A stretch of 64,000 nucleotides of DNA, taken from the IMG/VR virus record IMGVR_UViG_3300025671_000003; one strand, written 5' to 3'. Below are positions 305 through 56,044 of this stretch, in pieces; the first letter of the stretch is position 1; each line of letters starts with the position of its first letter. This stretch comes from an uncultured virus (IMG/VR IMGVR_UViG_3300025671_000003) (Duplodnaviria; Heunggongvirae; Uroviricota; Caudoviricetes). The notes under the pieces were generated by a model, which was given only the letters and a program-made list of their open reading frames with translations, was not told where the DNA came from and ran no database searches. A program made the translations under genes and the position numbers.

Positions 305-307
305 ATT

Positions 308-421: not shown

Positions 422-426
422 AAACA

Positions 427-579: not shown

Positions 580-664
580 TGAGTTAATCAAACAAGATAA
601 ACAAACAATTAAAGAAATATGATACTGTATAATACCTGATAACTACCATTTAATCTATATTTAG

Positions 665-7135: not shown

Positions 7136-7307
7136 TACATATAACTATTGGTGCCTAAATGTAGAATGTAATGAAAATACTTTACTACATATAAGTACTA
7201 CAGAAAAAAACAAGGATAAAACTAAATGCCCTAAATGTAAGGGTAAATTAAAATTAGTGGGGCTACATAGTAATATATTACATCATGGTACTCAGGAAAG
7301 CAGATAA
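7128..7307 (+). CDS. 59-aa zinc-ribbon protein (not in the ORF track)
   Basis: Hand translation MINTYNYWCLNVEC...CPKCKGKL; overlaps the upstream stop. Confidence 0.65.
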   Translation: MINTYNYWCLNVECNENTLLHISTTEKNKDKTKCPKCKGKLKLVGLHSNILHHGTQESR

Positions 7308-7308
7308 A

Positions 7309-8004: not shown

Positions 8005-8005
8005 T

Positions 8006-8299
8006 ATGGCAAATAAAGATAAAAAAAAGAATAACCCTATAAGTAAAAGGGCTTATAATAGGAGGTTAAAACAGTTAAAGGGTAAACATAAACCTCATAC
8101 AGAAAACATAAGTAAGGAGGCTAAATTACAAACCCATACAGAGCTATTAACCATGTATGAGCTATTTATAAAACAAACAGGGCAGCGTAAAAGGTTTACT
8201 AAATGGCTATCTAAAAATGTAGCATCTGTACCTAAACAAAAATATACTTTAGTAGATAGGCTAAAAGTTATTATTAATTATTTCTTTAAACCTTTATAA
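8006..8299 (+). CDS. Basic hypothetical protein
   Basis: Tightly packed ORF in the operon. Confidence 0.6.
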   Translation: MANKDKKKNNPISKRAYNRRLKQLKGKHKPHTENISKEAKLQTHTELLTMYELFIKQTGQRKRFTKWLSKNVASVPKQKYTLVDRLKVIINYFFKPL

Positions 8300-8300
8300 G

Positions 8301-8939
8301 ATGAGCAATTTATATGACACAAATAATATATATTTATTTGATAAGAAAGGTAATAAAATACATAGTACTGCTATAATAGAGGATGAGGTAATAATAGGCT
8401 CAGATAATTATATAGGGGCTTATACTGTTATTAAATCAGGTACAACTATAGGAGATAATAATTATATAGGGATAGGCTGTATAATAGGGGATGATCCTGA
8501 AAAAGTAGGCTGTTTTGATGTAGTATCAGGGGTAGTTATAGGTAATAATAATAGATTATCTAAGCAGGTTACTATAGATAGGGGTAATGTAGTTAAAACA
8601 TTGTTAAAAGATAATATACTAATGTTAAAAAATGCTCATATAGGGCATGACTGTAAAATTATGGATAACTGTACTATAGGCTGTAATGTAGCTATAGGAG
8701 GTAATACATTTATGGAGGCTTTTGTAACATTAGGGTTAAATGCATCAGTACATCAGAGGAGTTGGATACCTATGGGTAGTATGATAGGAGCAAATAGCTT
8801 TTGGAAAGATAACTATACTGATGAGATATTACCTGAGGATGATTTTTGGATATGGGTAGGTACTCCTACAGAAAAAACAAAGCCAAATAATATAGGGTAT
8901 AATAGATATGTAGAAATAAAAGAAAATGAAAAAAGATAA
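8301..8939 (+). CDS. LpxA-like hexapeptide-repeat acyltransferase
   Basis: IG-x-N-x-IG hexapeptide repeats, VTIDRG, AHIGHDC, VHQ. Confidence 0.88.
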   Translation: MSNLYDTNNIYLFDKKGNKIHSTAIIEDEVIIGSDNYIGAYTVIKSGTTIGDNNYIGIGCIIGDDPEKVGCFDVVSGVVIGNNNRLSKQVTIDRGNVVKTLLKDNILMLKNAHIGHDCKIMDNCTIGCNVAIGGNTFMEAFVTLGLNASVHQRSWIPMGSMIGANSFWKDNYTDEILPEDDFWIWVGTPTEKTKPNNIGYNRYVEIKENEKR

Positions 8940-9624
8940 TATAAAGGTAGTAGTATCATATCCATCTCATAATAGGTTAGATTATTGTAAAATAACTTTA
9001 CCTCAGGTTATTAATGAGGTTAAAAATGCTAAGAATAAAAGCATATTATATATAGGGGATGATAACTCTACAGATGGTACATGGGAGTATATTAATAGTA
9101 CTATGGGGGCTACTGTAATAGAACAGCAAAAGGTAGGTAATAGTATATGGCAGCTAAATAATGCTTTTGATTTAGCACGTTCAGTTAATGCTGAGTATGT
9201 TTATGCTATGGCTAATGATATATTAATGCCTGATGGTATAATAGATAAAATGGTTAAGTTAATGGAGCAATATCCTGATGCCTGTAGTATGATGGTAGAG
9301 GAGTGTTTTAATATGCCTTATATACATCCTGCTATAACAGTAGAGGAGCATTTATTTACATCCTCTTTAGGTATCCATAGAGTAGAGGCATATCCTCAAA
9401 AGATGGTAGCAAATAAAAGGTTTTTCGGCTTTCAAGATTATCAAAGAAAGGCTATTAAAAATCATGGCTTTGCTGCTTATAGGATTAAGGGGATAGGTAA
9501 TACTAATTTAGATGGTAGCTCATGGAGTAGGCAGGATGAGTATGAGAGTTTAGGTTATGCTCGAAAAGGGTTAGTAAGTAATGAAAAAAGTATTTATAAA
9601 TTTGAAAAGGGGCAAATAGAATGA
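8926..9624 (+). CDS. GT2-like glycosyltransferase
   Basis: YPSHNR, DDNSTDGT, ANDIL. Confidence 0.8.
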   Translation: MKKDNIKVVVSYPSHNRLDYCKITLPQVINEVKNAKNKSILYIGDDNSTDGTWEYINSTMGATVIEQQKVGNSIWQLNNAFDLARSVNAEYVYAMANDILMPDGIIDKMVKLMEQYPDACSMMVEECFNMPYIHPAITVEEHLFTSSLGIHRVEAYPQKMVANKRFFGFQDYQRKAIKNHGFAAYRIKGIGNTNLDGSSWSRQDEYESLGYARKGLVSNEKSIYKFEKGQIE

Positions 9625-10583
9625 TTAATATATTATTTCATATACCTTTATATGTAGATGTACAACTATCAGGGGGAGAGAAAACGGCTCAGGATTTTGC
9701 TGAGTATCTTAAAAGTACAGGGGATTATAATGTTAGGATTATAGCAGATAGAACTAATAAAAATAGTTTTAATAATATAGATTTATATAGTGAGGATAAT
9801 ACTGATGTACCTTTACAGCATCATTATAAATGGGCTAATGTAGTTTTTACTCATTTAGGTAAACAAGGTAAAGCAGTTAACTACTCTAAAATGAATAAAG
9901 TACCTATCTGTATCTATATGCATAATACTAATGGATCAGTATTAGCTAAGGCACGTAAGGAGATAGGAGTAATTTATAACAGTTATTTTACAGAGCATAG
10001 GATAGCTGCAGATTTTACAGGTAACAAATCAGCATTAATAAGACCTATACTAAAATTAGATACATCATTTAACTCTAATGGTAAATATATTACTATGATT
10101 AATCTAAATGAGAATAAAGGAGGGTTATTATTAAAACAGATAGCAGAGAGCCTACCTGAGTATGATTTTTTAGCTATTACAGGGGGTTATGCTAAACAGT
10201 TTACCCATCAGCCTAAAAATGTAAAGGTACTACCTCAGCAGGAGGATATGAGTAAAGTGTATAAGGATACTAAATTACTTATTATGCCATCTAATTATGA
10301 GAGCTATGGACGTACTGCAGCAGAGAGTATAGGTTATGGGATACCTGTACTATACTCAGATACTAATACAGCATTAGAGGAGGTAGTAGGTAATGCAGGA
10401 GAGCCTGTAAAAGATAGGAATAATATTAACTCATGGGTTAAAGGTATTAGATGGATAGATAATAATATTGATCATTATAGAGGTAGGGCAATTAATCAAA
10501 GGCTATTTTTATTACAACAAATAGAGAGAGATAAAGACAATTTTAAAGCCTTTATTAAAAACCTTATCTTTGATAAAAAATAA
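9621..10583 (+). CDS. GT4/GT-B glycosyltransferase
   Basis: SGGE, NKGG, MPSNYESYGRTAAE (Ex7E), GIPV. Confidence 0.9.
   Translation: MINILFHIPLYVDVQLSGGEKTAQDFAEYLKSTGDYNVRIIADRTNKNSFNNIDLYSEDNTDVPLQHHYKWANVVFTHLGKQGKAVNYSKMNKVPICIYMHNTNGSVLAKARKEIGVIYNSYFTEHRIAADFTGNKSALIRPILKLDTSFNSNGKYITMINLNENKGGLLLKQIAESLPEYDFLAITGGYAKQFTHQPKNVKVLPQQEDMSKVYKDTKLLIMPSNYESYGRTAAESIGYGIPVLYSDTNTALEEVVGNAGEPVKDRNNINSWVKGIRWIDNNIDHYRGRAINQRLFLLQQIERDKDNFKAFIKNLIFDKK
10565..10572 (+). promoter_or_regulatory. TAnnTTTG element restarting the structural operon
   Basis: TATCTTTG at the end of the GT4 gene. Confidence 0.5.
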
Positions 10584-23661: not shown

Positions 23662-23997
23662 TTACTTAGGTAGCTCCCTTTCTTTTATCTCAAAATCTAT
23701 AAACTCATTACCTTTTTTAACTATACTTTTATTAACTGTTAACTGATATATATCCTTATCATTAAAATTATATTTCTTTTGTAGTATATCTAAAAACGGC
23801 TTTAAAGGGTTATCTATATCAGAGCCTTTATTACTAAATCCAAAATCTATTATAATATGATATGGAGGCTCAGGTAGTTTAATAGCAGGTAACATTACTT
23901 TTAACATTACCTCATAATCTTTATATTTTTGAGTTTTAAACCTCCTACCTTTCCATGCCAAATTAACTGATAATGGTTTTATTTTTATTTTATTCAT
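23662..23997 (-). CDS. rusA: RusA-like Holliday junction resolvase
   Basis: PLSVN, DIDNPLK..LD, FNDKDI; start moved to ATG at 23997. Confidence 0.85.
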   Translation of the reverse strand: MNKIKIKPLSVNLAWKGRRFKTQKYKDYEVMLKVMLPAIKLPEPPYHIIIDFGFSNKGSDIDNPLKPFLDILQKKYNFNDKDIYQLTVNKSIVKKGNEFIDFEIKERELPK

Positions 23998-24758: not shown

Positions 24759-25244
24759 ATGAGTTTAGAGAAAGCTAAAAAAATACTCTCAGAGCCTATA
24801 CAATCTAATGAGATAGAGTGGAGAGTACAGCAGCAAACAAAATCAGGGGATAAAATTATAATAGTACCATACATTAATAATAGGTGTGTTATGGAGAGAT
24901 TTGATAAAGCCTTTGGATGGGATAAATGGAGTAATGAGTTTACTGAGGTAGATGGTGGATTTATCTGTACTATCAAAATAGAGCATGATAATGGTTTTAT
25001 TATTAAATCTGATGGGGCATCTAAAACTAAAATAGAGCCTGTTAAGGGGGGTATATCTGACAGTATGAAAAGGGCAGCAGTACAGTTAGGATTAGGCAGG
25101 GGGTTATATGATTATCCAAAGGTAATGATAGAAACCACAGGCAAATATATACCTAATTGGGCTGAGGATAGATTAAATAAAATGGTAGATATGATCAATA
25201 AAGGACAATTTAAAGAATATATAGCAATATTAAAACAAAAATAA
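24759..25244 (+). CDS. sak: Rad52/Sak-like single-strand annealing recombinase
   Basis: IEWRVQ, YI..R.VMERFD, KGGISDSMKRAAVQLGLGRGLY. Confidence 0.88.
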   Translation: MSLEKAKKILSEPIQSNEIEWRVQQQTKSGDKIIIVPYINNRCVMERFDKAFGWDKWSNEFTEVDGGFICTIKIEHDNGFIIKSDGASKTKIEPVKGGISDSMKRAAVQLGLGRGLYDYPKVMIETTGKYIPNWAEDRLNKMVDMINKGQFKEYIAILKQK

Positions 25245-30316: not shown

Positions 30317-30546
30317 GTAAAATAAAAAAATATACTCCTGAGCAATATAATACAGGAGAATTAAACCTATTAACTATGGAGAAAAAATTAATAATTAGAG
30401 TATCTAAGTTAATGAGGCATAAAAGAGATTTAACAGCTAAAGTATTAGGTATATCTGAAAGGAATTTATATTTTAAAATAGATAGGCATGATATAGGGCA
30501 TTTAACTACATTTAACCATAAAAAAAAAGAGCATGAAAGTAACTGA
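30313..30546 (+). CDS. Fis-type HTH protein
   Basis: TAKVLGISERNLYFKI. Confidence 0.75.
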   Translation: MSKIKKYTPEQYNTGELNLLTMEKKLIIRVSKLMRHKRDLTAKVLGISERNLYFKIDRHDIGHLTTFNHKKKEHESN

Positions 30547-31189
30547 TAAAATAACAATTACAAACGAAGATAATATGCTATTAATGGCACGTTATCCAGA
30601 TAACTATTTTGATTTAGCTATTGTTGACCCACCTTATAAAAATGAATTTGTAATTGCGGCAAGTGATAATGCAAGTAAAGTAAAAAGAAATGGAAACCTA
30701 AAAACACTAAATAATAACGTACCTACAAATGAATATTTTACTGAACTTAAAAGAGTAAGCAAAAATCAAATAATATGGGGTGTTAATTATTATGAAATTT
30801 ATTTAGGTGCTGGAAGGATAGTTTGGGATAAAGATAATACGGGTGTTTATTCAGATTGTGAATTAGCGTACCATTCTTTTTCTGATGTAACAAGAAAGTT
30901 TAAATGGAGGTGGAACGGTATGCTTCAGCAAGATATGAAAAACAAAGAAACAAGAATACATCCAACACAAAAGCCTCGACAACTTTATAACTGGCTTTTA
31001 GATAAATACGCAAATGATGGAGATAAAATATTAGATACTCACTTAGGTAGTGGCTCTATTGCTTTAGCTTGTCACAATAGAGGCTTTGAATTAACAGCCT
31101 GTGAATTAGACAAAGATTATTATAATGCAGCAATAAAAAGAATTAAAAACCATACAGCTCAAACATCTATATTTGATTTTGGGGCTTAA
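30533..31189 (+). CDS. N6A/N4C DNA methyltransferase, beta class (copy 1)
   Basis: DPPY, HPTQKP, ILDTHLGSGS. Confidence 0.92.
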   Translation: MKVTDKITITNEDNMLLMARYPDNYFDLAIVDPPYKNEFVIAASDNASKVKRNGNLKTLNNNVPTNEYFTELKRVSKNQIIWGVNYYEIYLGAGRIVWDKDNTGVYSDCELAYHSFSDVTRKFKWRWNGMLQQDMKNKETRIHPTQKPRQLYNWLLDKYANDGDKILDTHLGSGSIALACHNRGFELTACELDKDYYNAAIKRIKNHTAQTSIFDFGA

Positions 31190-31198
31190 AACTAAATT

Positions 31199-31864
31199 AT
31201 GAAAGTAACAGATAAAATAACAGTAACAAACGAAGATAATATGCTTTTAATGGCACGTTATCCAGACAACTATTTTGATTTAGCTATTGTTGACCCTCCT
31301 TATGGTGGTAATGATGCAATAGGTTTAAAAGATAATACATCCAAAGGTAAACAAGCGACTAAAAGAACAAATTATAATGTGTTTGAGAATATTGCACCAA
31401 CCAAAGAGTATTTTAAGGAGCTAATAAGAGTTAGTAAAAATCAGATTATTTGGGGAGTAAATTTTTATAATAATTTTGATTTATCAGGAGGACGTATTTG
31501 TTGGGATAAAAAGGGGACGGCTTTTGGTAGAGCTGAATTAGCTTTTTATAGTGGTTCTAAGTCTGTTAATGTATATGAGTTTACTTGGAACGGTATGATA
31601 CAACAAGATATGAAAAATAAAGAGGTAAGAATACATCCAACACAAAAGCCTCGACAACTTTATAATTGGCTATTAGATAACTACGCTAAAGAGAATGATA
31701 AAATATTAGACACTCATTTAGGTAGTGGGAGCATTGCCTTAGCTTGTCACGATAGAGGCTTTGAATTAACTGCTTGTGAATTAGACAAAGACTATTACGA
31801 GGCAAGTATTAAAAGAATTAAAAACCACGTTTCACAAGTAACTATATTTGATTGTGGAGCTTAA
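31199..31864 (+). CDS. N6A/N4C DNA methyltransferase, beta class (copy 2)
   Basis: Same motifs; tandem paralog. Confidence 0.92.
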   Translation: MKVTDKITVTNEDNMLLMARYPDNYFDLAIVDPPYGGNDAIGLKDNTSKGKQATKRTNYNVFENIAPTKEYFKELIRVSKNQIIWGVNFYNNFDLSGGRICWDKKGTAFGRAELAFYSGSKSVNVYEFTWNGMIQQDMKNKEVRIHPTQKPRQLYNWLLDNYAKENDKILDTHLGSGSIALACHDRGFELTACELDKDYYEASIKRIKNHVSQVTIFDCGA

Positions 31865-31891: not shown

Positions 31892-33079
31892 ATGGCAAAT
31901 AAAAGAATAAGATTAAATGATGATGAGGTAGCATACCTAAAAATACCTAAAAGAAACGAAACTAAACAATATAGATTAACAGATAATCAAAAAACAGCCC
32001 TATACATTTATAGGGGGCATGATGCAGGTTTAGTAGAGGAGGCTATAAAAAATGGTATTAACCCTGAGAATGTAAATCATTATTGGTATAAAGGTAAAAG
32101 CTACTCTATCCATGCTAAACAGGATACAGATGAAAATGCTTTATCTTTAGAAAATATAGAGAGTACTATACAAACTATCTTAGATGCTTATACCAATATA
32201 ACCCCAACTACTTTTAAGCCTAAAAAAGTTAAAGAGAATAAAGCTATAAAAGTTACTATAACTGATAGTCATGTAGGTATGAATGTTAATCCTAATAAAG
32301 ATGCTTTATTTCAATATGAGTATAATGCTAATATCTATCAGGATAGTATGGATAAAGTATTTACATCTATTATAAAGGAGTATAATACTCATGGTACTTT
32401 TGATGTTTTATATTTAGATGATTTAGGGGATTTAGCTGATGGATGGAATGGATATACTACAAGGGGAGGGCATGAGCTACCTCAAAACCTAAATAATGCT
32501 GAGGTATTTGATGTTTGTGTAGATGCAAGGGTTAAACTAATACAAAAAATAGTTAAATCTAAAGCAGCTAATAAAATTATTTTGAGATGTATCTGTAATG
32601 ATAATCATAGTGGAGATTTTGGGTTAATCATTAATAAAACTATACAAAAGATTATTAATTTATTATATGATAATAATATAGTAGAGGTAGATATATTAAC
32701 GAGGTTTTTAGAGCATAGGGTATATGGTAAACATTGCTTTATATTAACTCATGGAAAGGATAAAAAGCAAATGAATAGAGGGCTACCTATTATATTAAAC
32801 GATAAGGCTGTAAGGTTAATATCAGATTATATAGATCATTATGATATAAACTCTGATTTTATCCATGTAGAGAAAGGGGATTTGCACCAAATAGGATACC
32901 AAAAAGTTAAGCAGTTTGATTATAGGAATTTTATGAGTTTTGCTCCTCCATCATCATGGATACAACATAATTTCGGAGATAGCTACTCAGGGTACTCTAT
33001 ACAGGTTATACCTAAAGATACAAACGAAATTAGCCATACAGATTACTTTTTAAACTATAAAAAAGCATTAAAAAAATAG
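31892..33079 (+). CDS. Calcineurin-like metallophosphoesterase-fold protein
   Basis: TDSHVG, LGDLADG, NDNH, THG, GDLH. Confidence 0.75.
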   Translation: MANKRIRLNDDEVAYLKIPKRNETKQYRLTDNQKTALYIYRGHDAGLVEEAIKNGINPENVNHYWYKGKSYSIHAKQDTDENALSLENIESTIQTILDAYTNITPTTFKPKKVKENKAIKVTITDSHVGMNVNPNKDALFQYEYNANIYQDSMDKVFTSIIKEYNTHGTFDVLYLDDLGDLADGWNGYTTRGGHELPQNLNNAEVFDVCVDARVKLIQKIVKSKAANKIILRCICNDNHSGDFGLIINKTIQKIINLLYDNNIVEVDILTRFLEHRVYGKHCFILTHGKDKKQMNRGLPIILNDKAVRLISDYIDHYDINSDFIHVEKGDLHQIGYQKVKQFDYRNFMSFAPPSSWIQHNFGDSYSGYSIQVIPKDTNEISHTDYFLNYKKALKK

Positions 33080-33100
33080 GATATATCAGATATATTGATT

Positions 33101-33108
33101 TATATTTG
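33101..33108 (+). promoter_or_regulatory. TAnnTTTG element before the cassette region
   Basis: TATATTTG, intergenic. Confidence 0.55.
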
Positions 33109-33194
33109 TAGAGAGCAAAACAATTAATTAAAACATCATAAGCAAAAAATATAATAATTAGTATGGTTGTAGCTGTATATAAAATAGATTAGTT

Positions 33195-33569
33195 ATGAGT
33201 ATAGAAGAAATAAAAATACATAATTGCAATAATAATACAACAATTTTTAATACGGATGATTGGATTAAGAATGATGATTTTATAAAATTTGCTAAGTCTA
33301 AACAACAAAAGATAGACCAATTAGAAAGAGAGGTTGAGGATTTAAGGAGTGGTAAAAATACAATGGTTTTTGGTGGTAGGTCAATAGGAAAAACGTATTT
33401 ACAAAGCATTGAAAAAGAAAACCAACAGTTAAAAGAAAGGAATAAGGAGTTGGAGAGATTCGCTAAAATACAAGATGCAAATTTGAATGACTTGTTTTAT
33501 CAAAAAAGATTAAATGAAAAAGTAATAAAGTTAAGAGATGGGTTAAAACAACTATTAAAAACTAAATAG
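33195..33569 (+). CDS. Coiled-coil hypothetical protein spanning the A/B junction
   Basis: ORF track; allele of 2..304. Confidence 0.75.
   Translation: MSIEEIKIHNCNNNTTIFNTDDWIKNDDFIKFAKSKQQKIDQLEREVEDLRSGKNTMVFGGRSIGKTYLQSIEKENQQLKERNKELERFAKIQDANLNDLFYQKRLNEKVIKLRDGLKQLLKTK
33224..33339 (+). repeat. Direct repeat copy 2
   Basis: Identical to 1-116. Confidence 0.95.
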
Positions 33570-33572
33570 ATT

Positions 33573-33746
33573 ATGAGTGATAAAAGAGAAATAAAGGAAT
33601 TATTAAGAATGGATAGTTATATTCAATGTGATGAATGTAAAAGAAAGTCTTTTGGTGGGGATTCAATAAATTCATATTGCAATATGAGGCAACCTAATGG
33701 CAAGATTTGTAAGGGCAAATTCAGAAGTAAAGATTTATTAACCTAA
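33573..33746 (+). CDS. 57-aa Cys-containing protein (MSDKREIK...CDEC...)
   Basis: Hand translation. Confidence 0.6.
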   Translation: MSDKREIKELLRMDSYIQCDECKRKSFGGDSINSYCNMRQPNGKICKGKFRSKDLLT

Positions 33747-33756
33747 TATAAAAACA

Positions 33757-33909
33757 ATGAGTGAAGCAGAAAAAGAAGTTATTATAAAAATTAATTTAGA
33801 GTTGAACGGAGATACTGCAATTAAAATAATGAATTGTTTAAAGGAAAACGAGCCTAAAATATGGCAAGAATTAAGAAGTGAATTAAAACAAATTAAAACA
33901 AATAAATGA
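33757..33909 (+). CDS. 50-aa hypothetical protein
   Basis: Homolog of 427..579. Confidence 0.75.
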   Translation: MSEAEKEVIIKINLELNGDTAIKIMNCLKENEPKIWQELRSELKQIKTNK

Positions 33910-33949
33910 TGAGTTAAACAAATAGGTTATAAACAATAAAAAAGAAGTT

Positions 33950-34144
33950 ATGGAAGGGGTTAAAATTATTTACAAAAACAATAAGCCTTACGGAATAAGG
34001 GATATTAATGGGTTTTTATTTTTCTTTAGTAATGTGAGTAAATTTGATAATCAAGAAGAAAGATATAGAAAGGAATTAATGCAACAGTTTGAACTTGCAG
34101 ATTTTTTAAAGTTGAAATTAGAAGAATTTAACCAAACAAGATAA
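33950..34144 (+). CDS. Hypothetical protein
   Basis: ORF track. Confidence 0.6.
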   Translation: MEGVKIIYKNNKPYGIRDINGFLFFFSNVSKFDNQEERYRKELMQQFELADFLKLKLEEFNQTR

Positions 34145-34155
34145 ACAATAAGATT

Positions 34156-34356
34156 ATGAAACATTTAGATAGATTAATAATTTACATTATTTATACGACA
34201 ATATCTGGAGAAATACTTATTCATAAAGTATTAGATATTGCAAAACACCCTTGTAATATACATTGGAAAATATTATTCCCTTATATTATAATATTTGTAA
34301 TGCTATTAATTATAACATACAAGAAATATAAAACATTTTCAGATAAAACAGATTAA
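34156..34356 (+). CDS. Small membrane protein
   Basis: Two hydrophobic stretches. Confidence 0.55.
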   Translation: MKHLDRLIIYIIYTTISGEILIHKVLDIAKHPCNIHWKILFPYIIIFVMLLIITYKKYKTFSDKTD

Positions 34357-34471
34357 TAAACAAACAAGATGAGTGAATGGACTAAATTAAAACTATCTGC
34401 TTTGTTTGGAATATTAACAGCTTTAGGAATATTTGCATTTGTAATTAATTTATTATATTATTTAAAATTAG

Positions 34472-34479
34472 TATATTTG
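34472..34479 (+). promoter_or_regulatory. TAnnTTTG element before phage B terS
   Basis: TATATTTG. Confidence 0.6.
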
Positions 34480-34493
34480 TAAAAAAAGATATT

Positions 34494-34826
34494 ATGCCAA
34501 GTGGTGGAAAAAGAGAAGGTGCAGGGAGACCAAAAGGTTCTCCAAATAAAAGCACACAAGAAATAAGAAACGCTTTTCAGATGTTTGTAGAAAACAATGT
34601 AGAGAATTTTGAAGATTGGATTGTGAGAGTTGCAGAAACAAATCCAGCTAAAGCAATAGAATTAGTTACTAACTTAGGGGAGTATATACTTCCTAAATTA
34701 TCAAGAACAGAAGTTAAAGCTGAAATAACAACAGATGAAATAGATTTAAGCAACTTACCACAAGAAACATTAGATAAACTAATAAATGAGAACGACACTA
34801 ACGAAACTGAAAGCGGAGAGCTATAA
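34494..34826 (+). CDS. terS: Terminase small subunit (putative)
   Basis: GGKREGAGRPKGSPNK; overlaps TerL. Confidence 0.75.
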   Translation: MPSGGKREGAGRPKGSPNKSTQEIRNAFQMFVENNVENFEDWIVRVAETNPAKAIELVTNLGEYILPKLSRTEVKAEITTDEIDLSNLPQETLDKLINENDTNETESGEL

Positions 34827-37047: not shown

Positions 37048-37235
37048 AAGGATTACATTGGCATATAATGAGGTATGATATTGCTGAAAGTGGTGTTTTT
37101 AATAAACAAGGATTAACGCCTTATGATAGTGTTGGATATGAACCTTTACACAATGTATTAAGATACGCTAATACAAGAGCAGAACAAATGTATCAACGTA
37201 ATGAAGATGCAAAAAATAATAAAAGAAAAAAATAA
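36954..37235 (+). CDS. Probable -1 frameshift extension of 36343
   Basis: -1 frame relative to 36343; only a TTG start upstream of the T9 run. Confidence 0.55.
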   Translation: MSIFFYSVESKITKKYKSIFRKGTGKGSKRLKGLHWHIMRYDIAESGVFNKQGLTPYDSVGYEPLHNVLRYANTRAEQMYQRNEDAKNNKRKK

Positions 37236-37624
37236 TGGAAGCAAAAGAATTAAGGATAGGGAATTTAATCAAGTATAAAAAGGGACATTTATCAAAAGTT
37301 AAATCTTTAGATAGTGATAATAGTTTGATGGTTGAAGGATTTGAAGATAATTATATTAACGGTTATTATGATGTTTGTAATTTTGAACCAATACCACTAA
37401 CAGAAGAATGGTTAATTAAGTTTGGGTTAAAAGAACATTCTAAATGGATATGGAGAATACCATTAAAAGGCAATATGTTTTTAATCTATGATGTAGGAAC
37501 TAAAAGCGTTGAAATTGGAATTAATGATAGTAGAACGGGTATTGCTTTTAAATGTGAATATCCTCACCAACTCCAAAACCTTTACTTTGCATTAACAGGA
37601 GAAGAACTAACAATAAAAGAATAA
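37235..37624 (+). CDS. Conserved Bacteroidota-phage hypothetical protein
   Basis: ELRIGN...PIPLTEEWL.KFG...HQLQNLYFALTGEEL. Confidence 0.75.
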   Translation: MEAKELRIGNLIKYKKGHLSKVKSLDSDNSLMVEGFEDNYINGYYDVCNFEPIPLTEEWLIKFGLKEHSKWIWRIPLKGNMFLIYDVGTKSVEIGINDSRTGIAFKCEYPHQLQNLYFALTGEELTIKE

Positions 37625-37627
37625 TAT

Positions 37628-38482: not shown

Positions 38483-38711
38483 AGTTTTATTAGTTAGTTC
38501 TAACAGATATTATGATTGTTATTTCATTTCTAATAATAAAAGCTATAAGAAGCTACTTGAAGAATTACAGATTAAATTAATAGGCTTAGATGTAGCAGAA
38601 TGTGAACATCAAGACTTAACTGTACTTTTAGAAACTAAACACGCTAATAAATTAATTGCTGATTTGTTTGAGTTGGCAAATGTAGTAAGATGTAAAATGA
38701 TTAAGGTATGA
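38439..38711 (+). CDS. Hypothetical protein
   Basis: ORF overlapping both neighbours. Confidence 0.5.
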   Translation: MNKIRLIRKYKKEGRVLLVSSNRYYDCYFISNNKSYKKLLEELQIKLIGLDVAECEHQDLTVLLETKHANKLIADLFELANVVRCKMIKV

Positions 38712-39334
38712 AGAAAGTTTGTGTAGTACCAATATTCGGAGATTATGACAATCTAAAAGAGCCTACATTTATTAACGATGATTGGAAGTATATCTGTATA
38801 TCTGATAAACACCATAAGTCTAATGTATGGAAAACTAAGATATTTAAAAACGATACATTAACTAACAAACAAAAAAGTGGTTATGTATTAACTCAGCTTC
38901 ATAGACTTTTAGATTATGATGTTGCTATTGTAGTCGGTGGACAAATACAAATCAACACAGACTTAAATAAGTATATCTTTGATGAAGACTTTGTTAGCTT
39001 AGACCACCCAAGTAGAAACTGTATTTATAAAGAAGCTCAAGCGTGTATCTTATTAGACAAAGACAATCCAAAGGTTATAGCTAAACAGATGTATAAGTAT
39101 TTAGAAGAAGGCTATCCAGTTAATAATGGAATGATACAAACTGGCATAACAATTAGAAAAGATAATAATTTAATTCGTACTTTTATGAATAGGTGGTGGT
39201 ATGAGATACAGACGTATTCACAGAGAGACCAATTAAGCTTTAACTATGTGAAGCATCAAATACCAATATCACATAGAGAGTTAAGTAGTAATTTATTAAA
39301 TAAAGAATTTAAACTAAATAAACATAATGGGTGA
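38708..39334 (+). CDS. DUF616/TOD1-MUCI70-like glycosyltransferase
   Basis: IFGDYDNL.EP, HPSRNCIY.E, WWYEI...SQRDQLSFNY. Confidence 0.85.
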   Translation: MKKVCVVPIFGDYDNLKEPTFINDDWKYICISDKHHKSNVWKTKIFKNDTLTNKQKSGYVLTQLHRLLDYDVAIVVGGQIQINTDLNKYIFDEDFVSLDHPSRNCIYKEAQACILLDKDNPKVIAKQMYKYLEEGYPVNNGMIQTGITIRKDNNLIRTFMNRWWYEIQTYSQRDQLSFNYVKHQIPISHRELSSNLLNKEFKLNKHNG

Positions 39335-39482
39335 GATAAAAGAGTTATTAATTAAGAATGGTTGGATTGAAACGAATAACATAAAACCAACATTTAAAAA
39401 GGACGATGTATTTATAAGGGTTGAGGTGTGGGGCGTAACAGATAAAGGTGGTTGTACAAAAGTAATTGATTTAACTAAATAA
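39327..39482 (+). CDS. 51-aa micro-ORF flanked by 16-bp direct repeats
   Basis: Hand translation; AACTAAATAAACATAA at 39312-39327 and 39473-39488. Confidence 0.6.
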   Translation: MGEIKELLIKNGWIETNNIKPTFKKDDVFIRVEVWGVTDKGGCTKVIDLTK

Positions 39483-39663
39483 ACATAAGTAATATGAAAA
39501 AAGGAATAATATTTATAATGATTGCAGTAGCTCTTTTTTATGGGTTGACGTATTTAATGACTGAACTATCATTTGATTACTGGTGGCATTTTCCCACATA
39601 TGTAGTTGGTGGTGTTTTAATGATATTATTTATTGTAATTGGGTGTTATAATATTTTATCAAA

Positions 39664-40389
39664 ATGAAAATAACAATAGTGACAGCAATATGGCAACGTC
39701 CCGAAGTTTGGGATATGTTTAAACAAGGTGTAAGACGTTTAAGAAACCAATACAACGATGTTGATGTTCAAGTCTGTGTTAGTGGTTCAGAGGGTGGAGC
39801 CTCTCAAAACAGATGTAAAGAAAAGTGGATTCACTATGTTGAAATAGAAAACAATCCTTTAGGTAGAAAGATGAACGCTGCATTAACATTAGCAAAACAA
39901 ACTAATGCAGATTATTATTTGTTAATGGGTAGTGATGATATTATCTGCAATAACTTATTTGATTTATATTTAGATTATATTGAGCAAGAGATTGACTACA
40001 TTTATTTAATGGACGGGTACTTCTTTGACACAACAACTAAGCGTTCTTTATATTGGGGTGGTTATGCTGATAAATTAAACTTAGGCAGACCACTTGGAGC
40101 AGGTAGAATGTTAAGTAAAAGATTAGTAGAGAAAATGGATTATAAGTGTTGGTATGATGTTAAACTAAGTGGATTATTAGACCAAGCAATGGATGAGAAG
40201 TTGGCAGAGATTGATTATACTAAGCAAGAAATATATTGCAGAGATAACGATTGTATGTTGTTAGATATTAAGAGCAGTACTAATATGACAAAGTTTGCTA
40301 AATGGAATAATACAGAGTTTATACATACTGATATTATTAAAAATTATTTACCTATATTTGAATTTAATAAAATATATTATGTCAAATAA
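39664..40389 (+). CDS. GT-A-fold glycosyltransferase
   Basis: VTAIWQR, PLGRKMN, LLMGSDD, GAGR, LD. Confidence 0.78.
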   Translation: MKITIVTAIWQRPEVWDMFKQGVRRLRNQYNDVDVQVCVSGSEGGASQNRCKEKWIHYVEIENNPLGRKMNAALTLAKQTNADYYLLMGSDDIICNNLFDLYLDYIEQEIDYIYLMDGYFFDTTTKRSLYWGGYADKLNLGRPLGAGRMLSKRLVEKMDYKCWYDVKLSGLLDQAMDEKLAEIDYTKQEIYCRDNDCMLLDIKSSTNMTKFAKWNNTEFIHTDIIKNYLPIFEFNKIYYVK

Positions 40390-40564
40390 AACAAAAGTGT
40401 ATTTAGTAAGTGAAAAAGAGCCTTCATTCAACACAATAATTGAGGCTAAGAAAGGAGTAAAAGGAAAATGGGAAAAGGTTAAAAGAACTTATCAAGGAGA
40501 TAAACCCGAATACAATTTTCCTAAAGAAGATAACGGATTTACTCATTGGAGGTATTTATTATGA
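40379..40564 (+). CDS. DUF551-like small protein
   Basis: VSEKEP...FTHWRYL; ATG at 40379. Confidence 0.5.
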   Translation: MSNKTKVYLVSEKEPSFNTIIEAKKGVKGKWEKVKRTYQGDKPEYNFPKEDNGFTHWRYLL

Positions 40565-41157
40565 ATAATAAAATAAGCCAATTTGCTTTTGTTTCTCCAA
40601 ACGCTATTATAGGAGATAACAACATCATAGAGGAGGGTGTTGTGATAAAAGATAATGTAGTAATAGGAGATAACAACCATATCTACCCATATACAACAAT
40701 CGGATTAGCTGGAGAAGTTAGAGGAGATGACAATATAAAAGGCAAAGTAGTAATAGGTAATAACAATGTAATAAGAGAGTTTACAAGTATTCAATCCCCT
40801 CAAAGGTATGATTACACTCAAATAGGTAACAACTGCTTTATAATGGATAAAACGCATATTGCACACGATTGTATTGTAGGAGATAATGTTACTATTGCAC
40901 CAATGGTTACTTTAGGCGGTTGTGTTAATGTTGGCAACTATACTAACTTAGGCATTAACTGTTCTATACATCAGAGGCTAACAATCGGAGAAAGTTGTAT
41001 GATTGGAATGGGTGCTATAATAGTTAAAGATATACCTAACTATGAAAAGTGGGTTGGAGTACCTGCTAAGTGTATCGGTTGGAATTTACTTGGCTTAAGA
41101 AAGCGTTACCCAAATAAAACAGAAGAAGAAATTATAGAACTATGTGTGGTATCTTAG
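40561..41157 (+). CDS. LpxA-like hexapeptide-repeat acyltransferase
   Basis: IGDNN repeats, IREFTSI, HIAHDC, IHQ, GVPAK. Confidence 0.9.
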   Translation: MNNKISQFAFVSPNAIIGDNNIIEEGVVIKDNVVIGDNNHIYPYTTIGLAGEVRGDDNIKGKVVIGNNNVIREFTSIQSPQRYDYTQIGNNCFIMDKTHIAHDCIVGDNVTIAPMVTLGGCVNVGNYTNLGINCSIHQRLTIGESCMIGMGAIIVKDIPNYEKWVGVPAKCIGWNLLGLRKRYPNKTEEEIIELCVVS

Positions 41158-41621
41158 CAGTCATAGGAGATTATAGGTATAAAGAAATACCAAAAGCATT
41201 ATTAGAACGTGGTAGAGATGATAACGGTATCTATCAAGATAAACACGTTCAGCTAATACAAACACGCTTAGAGATAACTAAGTGTAATATTGAGCTACCA
41301 TATCAAACAGATAGATATGTATTGTTATTTAATGGAGAAATATACAACTATAAACAGTTTGGAGATAATGAATATGAAGCAATATTAAATGTATATCAAT
41401 ACGGTGGAGAGTTAGACGGTCAATATGCTATTATAGTTTATGATAAACAAACTAAAGAAGTAACAACGCTTACAGATAGTTTTGGCATTCATTGCTTATA
41501 CAAAGATGATTATAATGGTAGTAGGTTCTACTCATCTAATTTAAGAAGTTTACCAAAGATTGAATTTAAAGAAGCACAACATAGAGGATATGGAAACATT
41601 ACCAAGCAAAGAGTTTTATAA
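41142..41621 (+). CDS. AsnB-type Ntn glutamine amidotransferase domain (stand-alone)
   Basis: MCGI N-terminus, RGRD, RLEI, FNGEIYNY, DGQYA, DSFG. Confidence 0.88.
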   Translation: MCGILAVIGDYRYKEIPKALLERGRDDNGIYQDKHVQLIQTRLEITKCNIELPYQTDRYVLLFNGEIYNYKQFGDNEYEAILNVYQYGGELDGQYAIIVYDKQTKEVTTLTDSFGIHCLYKDDYNGSRFYSSNLRSLPKIEFKEAQHRGYGNITKQRVL

Positions 41622-42339
41622 AGCATTTCTAAACGCTATAATTAAGAGAATGACTGATAATATAGTCGTTCCAGTTAGTGGTGGTTTAGACTCAACACTA
41701 ATAGTTAAGGCTTTATATGATTTAGGATTAGAAAACGATGTTCAATATGTTACAATGTATGGTAATGAGTATGCAGATAAGGTAGCAGAAACTTATAGTA
41801 TCAAGTTAGATGTATTTACTCCAGACTATAAAGAAGAAGATTTAGTTAAAATGGTTGAGATATTAGAAGAACCTTTTTATTCTCCAAGCGTAAACTATTA
41901 CTTATATGAAAAAATACATAGCATTGGTGGTCGAGTTTCTCTTAGTGGTTTGGGTGCTGATGAGCTTTTTGGTGGTTATGATTATTATAACACAAATAAA
42001 TACCCTCGAGGTTTGTTTAAAGAAGTTGTGGCGATTTCTAACAAAGAAAAGAAAGCGCAAGATTTACACTTTCTAACTAATCATCATTTAAGAGAGAATG
42101 AGAAGTTAGGGTTATATTGGCAAGTAGAAGGACGTTATCCTTTCTTAGATAAAGTAGTAAGTAAGACTGATGACAATGGTAAGAGTTTAATAAAGGATAT
42201 ATTACTTAGAGATTTTAGTGATGACTTTGTTAATAGACAAAAAGAGGGTTTCAGAATAGATGATAATAAAGATAGAGAACATCAAAAACAGCATTATATG
42301 AAACAATTAAATATTTGGAAGCAGATATTTATGAAATAA
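41590..42339 (+). CDS. AsnB-type synthetase domain (stand-alone)
   Basis: SGGLDS, LSGLGADELFGGY, EGRYPFLD, RQKEGF. Confidence 0.9.
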   Translation: METLPSKEFYKAFLNAIIKRMTDNIVVPVSGGLDSTLIVKALYDLGLENDVQYVTMYGNEYADKVAETYSIKLDVFTPDYKEEDLVKMVEILEEPFYSPSVNYYLYEKIHSIGGRVSLSGLGADELFGGYDYYNTNKYPRGLFKEVVAISNKEKKAQDLHFLTNHHLRENEKLGLYWQVEGRYPFLDKVVSKTDDNGKSLIKDILLRDFSDDFVNRQKEGFRIDDNKDREHQKQHYMKQLNIWKQIFMK

Positions 42340-51410: not shown

Positions 51411-51428
51411 TAGTATAACTATTTGTAT

Positions 51429-52448
51429 ATGACAATATTTAATAAAGTAGAAAACGGTTTTCAAATCAATATTGATGATGAAATCGGCTTTTGGGGTATT
51501 ACTCATCAAGACTTTACAAATCAACTTAACGAAATCGGAGAGCAAGACGTTCAACTTAATATAGCTTCATACGGTGGGGCTGTTTCCGATGCTTTTGCAA
51601 TTTACAACTCTTTAAAATCTCACAAAGGCAGAATAGTAGCAAACATCTACGGAGATAGTGCTTCTTCTGCAACATTTATAGCTATGGCAGCAGATGAGAT
51701 TAGAATTGTAGATAATGCTTTGTTTTTGATTCATAATGTTTGGGGTGGTGTTACTGGTGAAGCTGATGATTTAAGAAAGGCAGCAGATGATATGGATAAA
51801 GTAAACTCTAATATTATTGATGTTTATAAGAAAAGAACTGGTTTAAACAAAAACACTATTAAGTCTTTAATGAATAAGGGCGACTGGTGGACAGCAAAAG
51901 AAGCTAAAGCTAATGGTTTTGTTGATGCAGTTGTTGAGCCAAGTGAAATAATCAATAGAAGCGAAACTGTTTTAATGAATTGTGCTAATGAAGAAATGAA
52001 AGAAGCACTAAAAGAAAAAGTAAATCAATTAAATAATAATAAAAATCAAATCAAAATGACAGAAGAAAACAAGTCGTGGTTCTCTGGAAAGTTTGACGAG
52101 TTAATGAACTCTTTCAATAAGAAAGAAGAAGTTGCTCCGATAGTTGACGAGCAACCAAAAGAAGAAACTATTTCAAAAGAAGAAGTTTCTGAAATGCTTA
52201 ATTCAGTTAAAGATGAGATTTCTAAATCTAAAGAAGAAAACGAAGCTATCGTTAATTCTAAAGAAGAAGAAATTAAAAACTTAAAAGCTGAATTAGAAAA
52301 ATTAAACGCTAAGGCAACAGAGCCAAAAGCAGAAAACAAATCTCCAGAGGGAGATAGTAAAAAAGAAGTTGAAACGACTTCACCGTTTATCAACAAAACT
52401 GTTGCAAGGTTAAATAATAAGTATAAAGGAATTTTAAAAATTAAATAA
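51429..52448 (+). CDS. ClpP-type prohead protease with a C-terminal scaffold
   Basis: IASYGG.V, ASSATFI, LIHN, W.TAKEA...GFVD; coiled-coil tail. Confidence 0.9.
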   Translation: MTIFNKVENGFQINIDDEIGFWGITHQDFTNQLNEIGEQDVQLNIASYGGAVSDAFAIYNSLKSHKGRIVANIYGDSASSATFIAMAADEIRIVDNALFLIHNVWGGVTGEADDLRKAADDMDKVNSNIIDVYKKRTGLNKNTIKSLMNKGDWWTAKEAKANGFVDAVVEPSEIINRSETVLMNCANEEMKEALKEKVNQLNNNKNQIKMTEENKSWFSGKFDELMNSFNKKEEVAPIVDEQPKEETISKEEVSEMLNSVKDEISKSKEENEAIVNSKEEEIKNLKAELEKLNAKATEPKAENKSPEGDSKKEVETTSPFINKTVARLNNKYKGILKIK

Positions 52449-52451
52449 ATT

Positions 52452-53483
52452 ATGGCTGATGTAATTGCTGCGTCAATGACGCACTCATACGCTGGAGAAG
52501 AACTAATTAATGAATTGTTCTATCAACCGCAAGAAAACGTACCTGCTTTATCAAGTATGTATCGTTTTATACCAGTTAGAGGGGATAAAGTAAATGTTTA
52601 TTTACCACAAACTCTATCTAAAATATTAAGAAAATACTCAACTTGTGGATTTAGTGCTGCTGGTGGTACTACGACAATCGTTGATAAGACTTTATCTGTT
52701 GAAAAGATTAAAGCAAACTTAGAGGAGTGTGTTGATGCTTGGGATGACACTATCTTTGCTGAATTAATGAAAGGTGGAGTTAATAGAGATGATTTAAGTG
52801 GAACTGTTATTGATAATGTTATCAGAACACAATACTTAAAAGCTGCTGTTTCTGACATTCATAGAATTGCTTGGTTTGCTGATGCAAATGATGCTGATAA
52901 TGACTGGAACCAATTTGACGGTTGGATTACCAACTTCACAGATAGCTCTGCTACAATCGGAACTACTCGTTTTATTGATATGGATGCTACATCTTTTGAA
53001 ACTGGAGATGCTTTAGCTACTGATGGTGCTTTAGGTATTTTAAGACAAATATGGTCAGCTCAAACTGCTACATTAAGAGCAGTGCCAAATATGGATAAAA
53101 AATTCTATGTAACTAATACAGTTATTGATAACTATGCTACTACTTTAGAAAATCAAGGAAACATTGAGGGACAAAGATACATTCAAGATGGTGTTGCTAA
53201 ATATATGTTTAGAGGTGTTGAATTAGTTGCTGTACCAGAATGGGACACTAACTTAGCTGACTCAACTAACCCACACTACACGGGAAGTGGTCTTGGTATC
53301 GGTTCAAACTTAATTGTTTATACTGCTAAAGATAACTTAGTATTTGGTTCTGATGTTGTTGAAGGTTCTACTTCATTTAAAGTAAGATATGCTGATGATG
53401 ATGATGAGAAAATGAAAGTAACAACTAAATTCAAGTTAGGAGTTCAGACTATGCATTACGAATATGTTTGTGTAGCATACTAA
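52452..53483 (+). CDS. Major capsid protein
   Basis: Follows protease/scaffold; FDGW, NLVFGSD; downstream hairpin. Confidence 0.82.
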   Translation: MADVIAASMTHSYAGEELINELFYQPQENVPALSSMYRFIPVRGDKVNVYLPQTLSKILRKYSTCGFSAAGGTTTIVDKTLSVEKIKANLEECVDAWDDTIFAELMKGGVNRDDLSGTVIDNVIRTQYLKAAVSDIHRIAWFADANDADNDWNQFDGWITNFTDSSATIGTTRFIDMDATSFETGDALATDGALGILRQIWSAQTATLRAVPNMDKKFYVTNTVIDNYATTLENQGNIEGQRYIQDGVAKYMFRGVELVAVPEWDTNLADSTNPHYTGSGLGIGSNLIVYTAKDNLVFGSDVVEGSTSFKVRYADDDDEKMKVTTKFKLGVQTMHYEYVCVAY

Positions 53484-53492
53484 TATAATTAT

Positions 53493-53516
53493 AGAGGGGG
53501 TTTAAATACTCCCTCT
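53493..53516 (+). terminator. Hairpin after the capsid gene
   Basis: AGAGGGGGT...ACTCCCTCT. Confidence 0.55.
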
Positions 53517-53537
53517 TAACTTAAAAAATTAATAAAA

Positions 53538-54104
53538 ATGGCAGAATTATCTAATGATATTCTTATAACGTGTGATGATGAAAACAGACGTGGTGGAATT
53601 AAGCGTTTATTTGTTATAAACAGAGAAAACGTAACTTCTTTTACTGCTGGTGCTTCTCACGACTATACTGCTGTTACTTTAGATGCTACTTCTGATGTTT
53701 GGTATGAAATCCAAATTGATGACGAAAGTGGAAGTTACAATGCAGAAGGGTCAAGAGAAAACGGAAGTTCTTTACAAGAACATACTGTTGAAGCAATGAC
53801 ACCAAGAATAGACAAAGCAAAAGCTAAAACTTTACAAGAATTATTTACTTCGTGTAAATTGATTTGTTTAGTTGAAACTTATATTTCTACTGGAACTTAT
53901 AACCAATCTTTTATTGTAGGTTATGATGAGATATTAGGAAGTGATGCAGCTTTAAGAGCAAATATCACAACAATATTAGAGGCTGAATTACAAGGTCAAA
54001 ATGCATATATGATTACAATGAGTGGTAAATCTGGCGAAATTGCTAGAGAATACGTTGGCGACATTGACACTAATGCAAGTGGTACAGTTAGCTTCGGAAG
54101 TTAA
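53538..54104 (+). CDS. Major tail tube protein (putative)
   Basis: C....GGIKRLF N-terminus typical of Bacteroidota phage tube proteins. Confidence 0.7.
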   Translation: MAELSNDILITCDDENRRGGIKRLFVINRENVTSFTAGASHDYTAVTLDATSDVWYEIQIDDESGSYNAEGSRENGSSLQEHTVEAMTPRIDKAKAKTLQELFTSCKLICLVETYISTGTYNQSFIVGYDEILGSDAALRANITTILEAELQGQNAYMITMSGKSGEIAREYVGDIDTNASGTVSFGS

Positions 54105-54109
54105 TAATT

Positions 54110-54136
54110 AGAGGGGTTTAAAATCCCCTCTTTATT
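54110..54136 (+). terminator. Hairpin after the tail tube gene, similar in sequence to 53493
   Basis: AGAGGGGTTTAAAATCCCCTCTTT. Confidence 0.6.
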
Positions 54137-54149
54137 AAAACAAAAATTT

Positions 54150-54419
54150 ATGTATAGAATTAAAGAGAGTGGTTTGGGTAAAAAGTGGTGTGGAGATGGT
54201 ATAATCATTTTAACACACGAATTAAGCCAAAGAAAACTAAAAAAATTATTCAACGCAAGATGCGAATTTATAGAAGAATATGAACAAGAAACCACAAGCG
54301 AGGAAACCGAGACATCGAGCAGTACCGCAAAAGAAAACACCGCAGATAAAAGCAATGGCGGTAACAACGGACATAAATCAAACACAAGAAAAGGAAGCAA
54401 AAAGCACAAAGCAGACTAA
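54150..54419 (+). CDS. Small hypothetical protein
   Basis: ORF after the hairpin, overlapping the portal start. Confidence 0.45.
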   Translation: MYRIKESGLGKKWCGDGIIILTHELSQRKLKKLFNARCEFIEEYEQETTSEETETSSSTAKENTADKSNGGNNGHKSNTRKGSKKHKAD

Positions 54420-55587
54420 GTGGTTTCCATTTTTCAAGGATAGTGATAATATCTATATTAATGATTTAGCAGCAAGGGCTAAAAGAAGTCCTACTCACGG
54501 TGCTATATTACAATCTAAAGCAGTTTATACTGCTGGACAAGGCTTTTCGTATAAAGTTGATGGAGAAGATAAGCAGGAAGAAGATTTAGACGTTAAAACT
54601 CTTGATTATCTAAACGAAGTAAATAACAAAAGACAATCTTTACATTGGTTATTTAGCAAATCTGCTTATGACTTTATTTATAGTGGTAACGCTTATATTG
54701 AAGTTCATAAAGGTAATGAGTTTACAAGTCTATTTTATCAAGATGCAAGTAAGGTAAGAATAAGTGAAGAAACGGCTTATATTAGTGCTTATTGGCGTGA
54801 TATTGAAAACCAACCAACTTATAATGATAAAGACTACCCAGTTGAAACATTAGAGCTTTGGAATGGAGAATTAGACACAACACAAAAAAAGTTTATTATA
54901 CATCTTAAAAACGATGTACCCGAATACGATTATTATGGTTTACCAGAACATTTACAAATACTAAAATGGGCTGATGTAGAATATAAAATTGTACAATTCA
55001 ATCTTGACAAACTTAAAAACGGTTTCTTTCCAAGTGTTGCTATGGATATTGTTGGACAAGCTCCAGAGGGAATGACAGAGCAAGAATATGTTGATAAGAT
55101 TAAAGACAGTTTTACAGACGAGGGTAACAATCACAAAATGTTAATTCAATTAGTTGATAGTTTAGACCAAGCAACTAATATAACTGAATTTACAACGGCA
55201 AGAGAGGGAGAATTATTAGAACTACAAAATTTAGCCACACAAACTATAATTGCAGGTCATAGATGGTTTGCAAGTTTAGCTGGTATATCTCAAGCAGGTA
55301 GTTTAGGTAGCAATCAACAAATAAGAAACGAGTACAATATAGCTTTAAAAGGTGTTGTTGTGCCACAATTTCAAAACCCATTATTAAGAATGTTTAACGA
55401 CTTACTTACAATAGCAGGGTTTGAGAATGTTAAATTAGGTGTCTTAAATGTTGCTCCAGTAGGAATAGAAGATAAAATTGAGCCTAAAGAAGTATTATCA
55501 ATTAATGAGCAACGTGAGTTGCTTGGGTATGAACCAATAGAAGAAAAAGAAGATGAGCCGAACAACGGAGATGATAACAACGACTGA
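54280..55587 (+). CDS. Portal protein
   Basis: SPTHGAI, GNAYIEV, YYGLPE, NGFFPS, SINEQRELLGYEP. Confidence 0.88.
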   Translation: MNKKPQARKPRHRAVPQKKTPQIKAMAVTTDINQTQEKEAKSTKQTKWFPFFKDSDNIYINDLAARAKRSPTHGAILQSKAVYTAGQGFSYKVDGEDKQEEDLDVKTLDYLNEVNNKRQSLHWLFSKSAYDFIYSGNAYIEVHKGNEFTSLFYQDASKVRISEETAYISAYWRDIENQPTYNDKDYPVETLELWNGELDTTQKKFIIHLKNDVPEYDYYGLPEHLQILKWADVEYKIVQFNLDKLKNGFFPSVAMDIVGQAPEGMTEQEYVDKIKDSFTDEGNNHKMLIQLVDSLDQATNITEFTTAREGELLELQNLATQTIIAGHRWFASLAGISQAGSLGSNQQIRNEYNIALKGVVVPQFQNPLLRMFNDLLTIAGFENVKLGVLNVAPVGIEDKIEPKEVLSINEQRELLGYEPIEEKEDEPNNGDDNND

Positions 55588-56044
55588 GATTAAAAGTTTA
55601 GCTATTGTTGATGCAAATATTGATACGGCTTACTTTGACCAGTATATCTTAATGACTCAAAGAAAGTATATAAAACCTTTTTTGGGTGTTGATTTTTATG
55701 ATGAATTAACTACACAAATTGCAGGAGCTTCTTTAACTACTGCAAATGATACTTTGTTAGATGACTATATAAAACCAGCATTAGCTCACTATGTAGTATA
55801 TGTTTCTTTACCACAATTAAGAAGTCAAGTAGCTAAAGGTGGTGTGTTTTTAAATTTATCTGATACTGCTGATGCGGTTAGTGATTTAGGTTATGGACAA
55901 ATAAGAGATGATTATTTAGCTAAAGCAGAAACTTTTATAGATGAAATAGATAATTATATTAAAGAATACAGAAAAACAAATACTAACGCTTATCCGTTAT
56001 ATTGTGGTAAACAATCACAAAACGGTGGGATAATATTATATTAA
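55553..56044 (+). CDS. Head-tail adaptor
   Basis: Q.KYIKPFLG..FY..L, YIKPAL; follows the portal. Confidence 0.75.
   Translation: MSRTTEMITTTEIKSLAIVDANIDTAYFDQYILMTQRKYIKPFLGVDFYDELTTQIAGASLTTANDTLLDDYIKPALAHYVVYVSLPQLRSQVAKGGVFLNLSDTADAVSDLGYGQIRDDYLAKAETFIDEIDNYIKEYRKTNTNAYPLYCGKQSQNGGIILY

Follow-up and report, generated by a model that had tools for sequence, protein, structure and literature searches.

One viral record in IMG/VR raises the question of whether it describes a single virus or two joined genomes. The whole record is 71,401 bp long, and the stretch analysed here (the window) comprises its first 64,000 bases. Bases 1–116 recur exactly at 33224–33339, and this direct repeat is far beyond chance, as the longest other exact repeats in the window measure 83 and 39 bp. 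An earlier note on this DNA had reported the repeat, had proposed that the sequence before it (phage A) closes there into a 33,223-bp circle, and had suggested asking whether the contig ends in the same repeat. The exact match and the circle are borne out by the repeat geometry, and the contig does end in the repeat: its last 127 bases (71275–71401) equal 33180–33306, and its first 83 bases form a terminal repeat with 71319–71401. It follows from this ending that the true shared core is longer than reported, spanning 160 bp (33180–33339) that are identical in phage A and in the phage that follows it (phage B), and that the record is a figure-eight in which loop A (33,223 bp) and loop B (38,095 bp) sum to 71,318 bp, the record minus its 83-bp terminal repeat. 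Beyond the core, similarity between A and B continues in patches (18, 22, 83, and 25 bp exact) up to 604 in A and 33936 in B. IMG/VR classes the fused record as having direct terminal repeats and being 100% complete. The features on which the argument depends are as follows.

1–33223, plus strand: phage A, a complete 33,223-bp circle by gene content and by an identical stand-alone record (G002)
33180–64000, plus strand: phage B, represented by its first 30.8 kb (the whole circle is 38,095 bp and extends to contig position 71274); stand-alone record G001 is identical over 33456–71397
1–116, plus strand: final 116 bases of the core, repeated exactly at the start of the contig
33180–33339, plus strand: core, made up of an A-rich leader and the first 48 codons of a small ORF
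33195–33569, plus strand: junction ORF in its B form, 124 aa, no PHROG or Pfam family
33440–33578, plus strand: second exact block, 139 bp, common to B and a third phage, C
33182–34394, plus strand: linker-and-slot array of B, just upstream of a terS-like gene
117–604, plus strand: shorter array of A, with linkers at 291–312 and 409–427
24759–25244, plus strand: Rad52-family single-strand annealase of A (PF04098, E 3e-17; phrog_1097)
61587–62045, plus strand: Rad52-family single-strand annealase of B (PF04098, E 3e-14; phrog_1097)

Phage A encodes terS, TerL, a portal, a protease, an HK97-type capsid, glycosyltransferases, and non-contractile-type tail genes, along with an endolysin, a Rad52-like annealase, an SSB, a helicase, and two methyltransferases. 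The portion of phage B in the window encodes terS, TerL, a tape measure, a Clp-type protease, a probable capsid (52452–53483, assigned by position, its PHROG hits being weak), a portal, and a Rad52-like annealase; its SSB and helicase lie outside the window, further along the contig. TerL, protease, capsid, portal, tape measure, and annealase are all doubled, as are the SSB and the helicase. The earlier note had held that every core module occurs twice in non-homologous form, and this is true of TerL, portal, protease, and capsid, for which no A–B pair was found by BLASTP at E<1e-3. It does not extend to the SSB, helicase, annealase, or tape measure (62, 59, 36, and 24% protein identity, respectively, by BLASTP), to a hexapeptide protein (33%), or to one tail-region protein (36%). 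Because the SSB, helicase, and annealase align between the loops, A and B appear from their sequences to be distant relatives, and calling them unrelated was an overstatement. No match to a tyrosine integrase (PF00589) or a serine resolvase (PF00239) was found in the contig (controls 14/14 and 12/14).

We infer a Bacteroidota host for these phages from the DUF3127 SSB and the A-rich leaders, which we take to be pointers to that group. A prophage and host search in GTDB with the TerL of B returned 18 loci, the best at 38% identity, from which no host could be assigned. Neither the capsid of B nor the junction region had a match among 50,697 phage records, and the capsid of A reached at most 28–32% identity among the 15 matches listed.

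Several features of gene order were observed in the two loops. At 51423–56044, the protease, probable capsid, and portal genes come after the tape measure, 17–20 kb from TerL, an arrangement found in B and in the relatives G006, G007, and G009. Both phages carry a cluster of glycosyltransferase and hexapeptide-transferase genes among the head genes (A 6506–10583, B 38708–42339), possibly for virion glycosylation, and the cluster of B additionally has an asparagine-synthase-like pair. In this pair (41142–42339), one PHROG family is split over two overlapping ORFs, a glutamine amidotransferase half and an asparagine synthase half; both have matches in G007 and G009, where they overlap as well. 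At 62640–63935, and again at L001:3947–4942, a PAPS-reductase/DUF3440 gene stands ahead of a 155-aa ORF that has no PHROG family and then a ParB-like gene. Contig positions 70615–70746 and window positions 23683–23814 form a 79% identical inverted match, joining the RusA-like gene of B and the region after the lysis genes of A.

Are the two loops found apart from each other? A search of other assemblies for an exact 29-base core motif gave four stretches in three viral records, plus two metagenome contigs. One record (G002, 33,294 bp) is A alone, identical to 1–33287 plus 7 bases, and another (G001, 37,942 bp) is B alone, 100% identical to 33456–71397. The remaining matches belong to phage C, which carries 33182–33338 with one substitution at 33306 and has different flanks; runs X6 and X8 follow the same path as phage C through the core. 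We simulated an error-free de Bruijn graph of A, B, and C at k=123 and k=127. At k=123, the graph gave a unitig of exactly 37,942 bp with the ends of G001, a break where the phage C record G004 begins, and the start of G002, whose predicted end lay 15 bases beyond the observed 33287; the starts of G001 and G004 at this k arise from the 139-bp block common to B and C. At k=127, the end of the window contig was reproduced exactly, and its start was predicted 11 bases earlier than observed. On these results, the shared core is a graph hub.

Two further hubs were seen. One of high depth, with a summed depth of about 180 and common to many phages in the runs, is at 30533–31864 of A and consists of two tandem N6/N4 DNA methyltransferase genes that are about 76% identical. 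The other, in B, surrounds a phrog_10066 ORF (37235–37625); its motifs at 37382–37428 and 37565–37625 are found upstream of terS in the relatives G007 and G009 and match G013 too.

The stand-alone records G001 and G002 are not proof of phase, that is, of A joining A and B joining B. Up to a length of 161 letters, a fused circle contains exactly the same words as two separate circles. The loop unitigs are alike under both models, and the ends of both records lie in shared blocks, so these ends represent graph breaks. The best evidence of phase comes from a protein record. The 110-aa protein encoded across an A-to-A junction was predicted beforehand and was found whole on a 33,364-bp contig. This length equals 33,223 + 141, that of an unbranched A circle at k=141, the circularity being given by arithmetic; with B in the graph, the A loop would be 33,345 bp long and would begin after the start codon of the junction gene. 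For B, the genome unit is supported by the sizes of its relatives. G006 (36,123 bp, 99-bp terminal repeat, 100% complete) matches 15/67 ORFs of B and 2/46 of A, and G009 (37,580 bp, permuted, and largely collinear) matches 32/67 and 6/46, respectively; each has a single gene set, and a B-type unit of 36–38 kb is thus indicated. A complete A-type relative was looked for and not found; an A-like strain is represented by a 22,053-bp contig (capsid 97%, TerL 92%). None of the five records compared carries both gene sets. A 71,928-bp record (G014) was considered as a second double genome and rejected, having no internal repeat and only three matches to A or B proteins.

The composition of the sequence breaks at the join. 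Phage A contains 26 GATC and 78 CATG sites, and B contains none and one, respectively, where about 98 of each would be expected. Usage of both words switches at the join, the last sites before it being at 32834 and 32955, and the tetranucleotide distance between A and B (0.032–0.035) is about three times that within each loop (0.011–0.013). CCGG, CGCG, and GGCC are absent from both A and B, and phage C retains CGCG and GGCC. These differences in site avoidance hint at partly different hosts among the phages that share the array described below.

Depth, in comparison, is about equal on the two sides of 33224. These values come from runs of assembled contigs, not reads, and are length-weighted over the longest pieces listed: 19.0 for A and 20.2 for B in run X1 (B/A 1.06), and 18.2 and 20.0 in run X2 (1.10). 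Either run may be the source of the contig, and the two look like near-replicates, so the depth result counts about once. The earlier note had put forward read depth as a check; the comparison could be made, but it does not separate the rival explanations, and we dropped it as a discriminator. Unequal depth is a common sign of a chimera, not a requirement, and equal depth would fit a 1:1 fusion as well as an assembler joining paths of like depth. Cover in X3, X4, X5, and X7 was too patchy for ratios. Across the eight runs used, of 12 listed, all of them contig sets, nothing was seen to cross the core with long flanks on either side, neither a read nor a contig. In X6 and X8, most bins of A were little covered and B-like pieces about 0.5% different were present; such a hole proves nothing and is not used as evidence. 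Record 19 of X5 (33180–33638) begins exactly where the upstream flank of B meets the core, with three loose letters, and was set aside as junction evidence, being a weak hint at best when several other records in those runs also have three to five loose letters.

Considering these results together, the 71-kb record is very probably an assembly chimera of two separate freshwater phages that share an exact 160-bp stretch, as argued by the stand-alone records of A and B, the 33,364-bp contig, the GATC/CATG switch, and the 36–38-kb size of B-type relatives. The repeat that holds the join is exact and no shorter than the k of the assembler (the 160-bp core, the first 127 bases of which form the contig end), each side is given separately in other assemblies as a self-sufficient genome (G002, G001, and the 33,364-bp contig), and phage C crosses the core within its own flanks, which we also count in favour of a chimera. 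A de Bruijn assembler, likely at k=127 judging from the 127-bp match at the contig end, would have gone once round A, through the core, and once round B. The exit into B was perhaps chosen since the exit into A was missing its first 11 words, leaving B as the only way on, an idea that comes from the contig starting 11 bases later than the error-free graph predicts. The chance of such an 11-word gap is about 0.02–0.03 if 150-base reads are assumed, and a different branch immediately beyond position 127 would be an equally plausible cause. An assembler walk was the reading preferred in the earlier note, and of those considered it is the best supported, by the separate A and B records, the composition switch, and the 33,364-bp contig.

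A real and abundant 71,318-bp cointegrate, formed by a single crossover in the 160-bp core and present as the main form, would account for the near-equal depth (B/A 1.06 and 1.10) and for a contig that closes as a circle of exactly A plus B and is classed as complete with direct terminal repeats; both halves encode Rad52-type annealases, and short words cannot tell the fused circle from two circles. We nonetheless consider it improbable. The A-to-A junction gene is present on the 33,364-bp contig, the fusion would load a genome purged of GATC and CATG with 26 and 78 of these sites, respectively, no integrase or resolvase (PF00589 and PF00239, zero matches) is there to maintain or resolve it, and B-type genomes are 36–38 kb. 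Heads sized for 33–38 kb would not hold 71 kb. Such a cointegrate would be surprising if true, though this is unlikely. It is also possible to imagine mostly separate circles with a minority of transient A–B crossover molecules from co-infection, the assembler having followed real crossover reads. The patchwork of exact blocks (A–B 160 and 83 bp; B–C 124 and 139 bp) does imply crossovers at this locus. However, the graph alone yields the contig, nothing observed needs crossover reads, and the differing site avoidance suggests partly different hosts, which would make A–B co-infection uncommon; the chances of this mixed state are slim. Slimmer still are those of one long-standing 71-kb virus with duplicated and diverged structural and replication modules. 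The sequence does come as one contig with all long ORFs on one strand, a uniform G+C of about 30%, and a positive GC skew throughout the record, but the sharp GATC/CATG switch at the join, the tetranucleotide split, head genes that cannot be aligned, and relatives with one gene set only all stand against a single lineage.

The 160 bp on which the join turns are DNA that the phages genuinely share: they form the 5′ end of a small gene belonging to a series of short ORFs, an array bounded by conserved linkers. In both A and B, the array precedes the terS-like gene, and the small ORF of the core opens it. The junction protein exists in four variants and is an intragenic mosaic; the A form (110 aa) consists of the core plus 117–304. 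In B, linkers at 33182–33206, 33556–33577, 33739–33757, 33928–33952, 34132–34158, and 34341–34367 have ORFs of 37–124 aa between them. A 50-aa ORF of A (427–579) is 88% identical to that at 33757–33909 of B. Neither the payload ORFs nor the junction ORFs have a PHROG family, and a promoter scan of 32900–34600 found 13 sites compared with 13.0 in shuffles, and no terminators.

The six linkers (19–27 bp) were cut from B where it matches C, so that matches in B and C, and that of the one linker by which a further phage, D, was found, are by construction. The linkers are found in the same order in A (3/6), B (6/6), C (6/6), and D (4/6), and a B strain (L012, 99.5% identical downstream) has 3/6 at up to two mismatches and a fourth at three. 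They were found at 0/170 other loci, a set of 1.44 Mb from which the 36 loci belonging to A, B, the B strain, C, and D had first been removed, and are absent from G006, G007, G009, and G013. The genes within the slots are largely unrelated: among 26 same-slot payload pairs, 22 are at shuffle level, two are weak (2 and 7 of 300 shuffles), and two are near-identical, including one between the B strain and D (96% over 207 bp). The B strain also has extra cassettes flanked by repeated linkers. Phage D is a 72-kb phage with a DNA polymerase, a primase, and a Sak4-like annealase (20 proteins scanned) that matches only three A or B proteins. For phage C, a scan of 16 proteins found no Rad52-like gene. 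The 71,928-bp record (G014:71928) ends just inside the linker array of D, and another (G015:15864) runs on; the array therefore likely breaks assemblies in other samples too.

How did the same 160 bp come to be in two divergent phages? With 70–78% identity in the homologous replication genes, an exact run of this length has a probability below 1e-17, and a recent transfer of the stretch is therefore supported by the sequence comparison. The earlier note had concluded as much from the exact identity, as an exchange between A and B; the recency stands, but the exchange looks many-way; phage C shares the stretch with one substitution. The pattern of sharing (A–B 160 and 83 bp; B–C 124 and 139 bp) is reticulate. 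We propose that cassettes are likely exchanged among A, B, the B strain, and two further phages when these co-infect a cell, the linkers being the sites of double crossovers and Rad52/Sak4-type annealases a plausible means. By a narrow preference, we read the ordered linkers, at least six of them and 19–27 bp long, as a community-wide plug-in array that has spread sideways, with slot-by-slot swapping outpacing point mutation. With the same slight leaning, the array would sit in at least four freshwater backbones (two siphovirus-like phages of 33–38 kb, a 41-kb genome, and the 72-kb DNA-polymerase phage), and the genes swapped would, somewhat more probably than otherwise, be small and often hydrophobic.

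We advise against treating the fused genome as a virus; the 100% complete 71-kb entry in IMG/VR should be split into A and B. Overlaps of k length at contig ends, in regions shared by different genomes, are described in part of the COBRA report (PMC10914622), and the same k-length overlap at a shared region is observed here. Unlike in those known breaks, the walk here comes back on itself in a full figure-eight, and with its 83-bp terminal repeat the chimera is therefore classed as 100% complete. In sections of the CheckV report (PMC8116208), a terminal repeat of k-mer length counts as a sign that a genome is complete, and the present record indicates that a terminal repeat is no safeguard against figure-eight chimeras. 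Linker-bounded arrays of this kind would be recurrent points of breakage and mis-joining in short-read viromes.

One of the standing models of phage mosaicism, set out in part of PMC3233612, places recombination at short boundary sequences that are conserved. As in that model, unrelated genes in A to D and in the B strain are flanked, in a fixed order, by short sequences conserved at the gene boundaries. Unlike it, the six ordered linkers span backbones with little else in common, including that of a 72-kb DNA-polymerase phage, and are missing from the nearer relatives of B itself. We found no literature on such a linker array in these phages, and the portion of PMC9836094 that was available contains nothing on linkers. 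A small-gene array bounded by linkers across several backbones is thus a natural test case for the boundary-sequence model. In excerpts of earlier work, mosaics attributed to Rad52-like recombinases in Escherichia coli phages have median lengths of 131 bp in virulent and 404 bp in temperate phages (PMC3945230), and exchange is common among mostly integrase-free Vibrio phages (PMC8766483). The present phages resemble both in having short near-identical patches in divergent annealase-encoding genomes, and differ in that the patches are concentrated in one array of small ORFs, where the role of the annealase is putative. Very likely, then, the fusion is an ordinary artefact atop a known kind of exchange, of which the array is a real new example.
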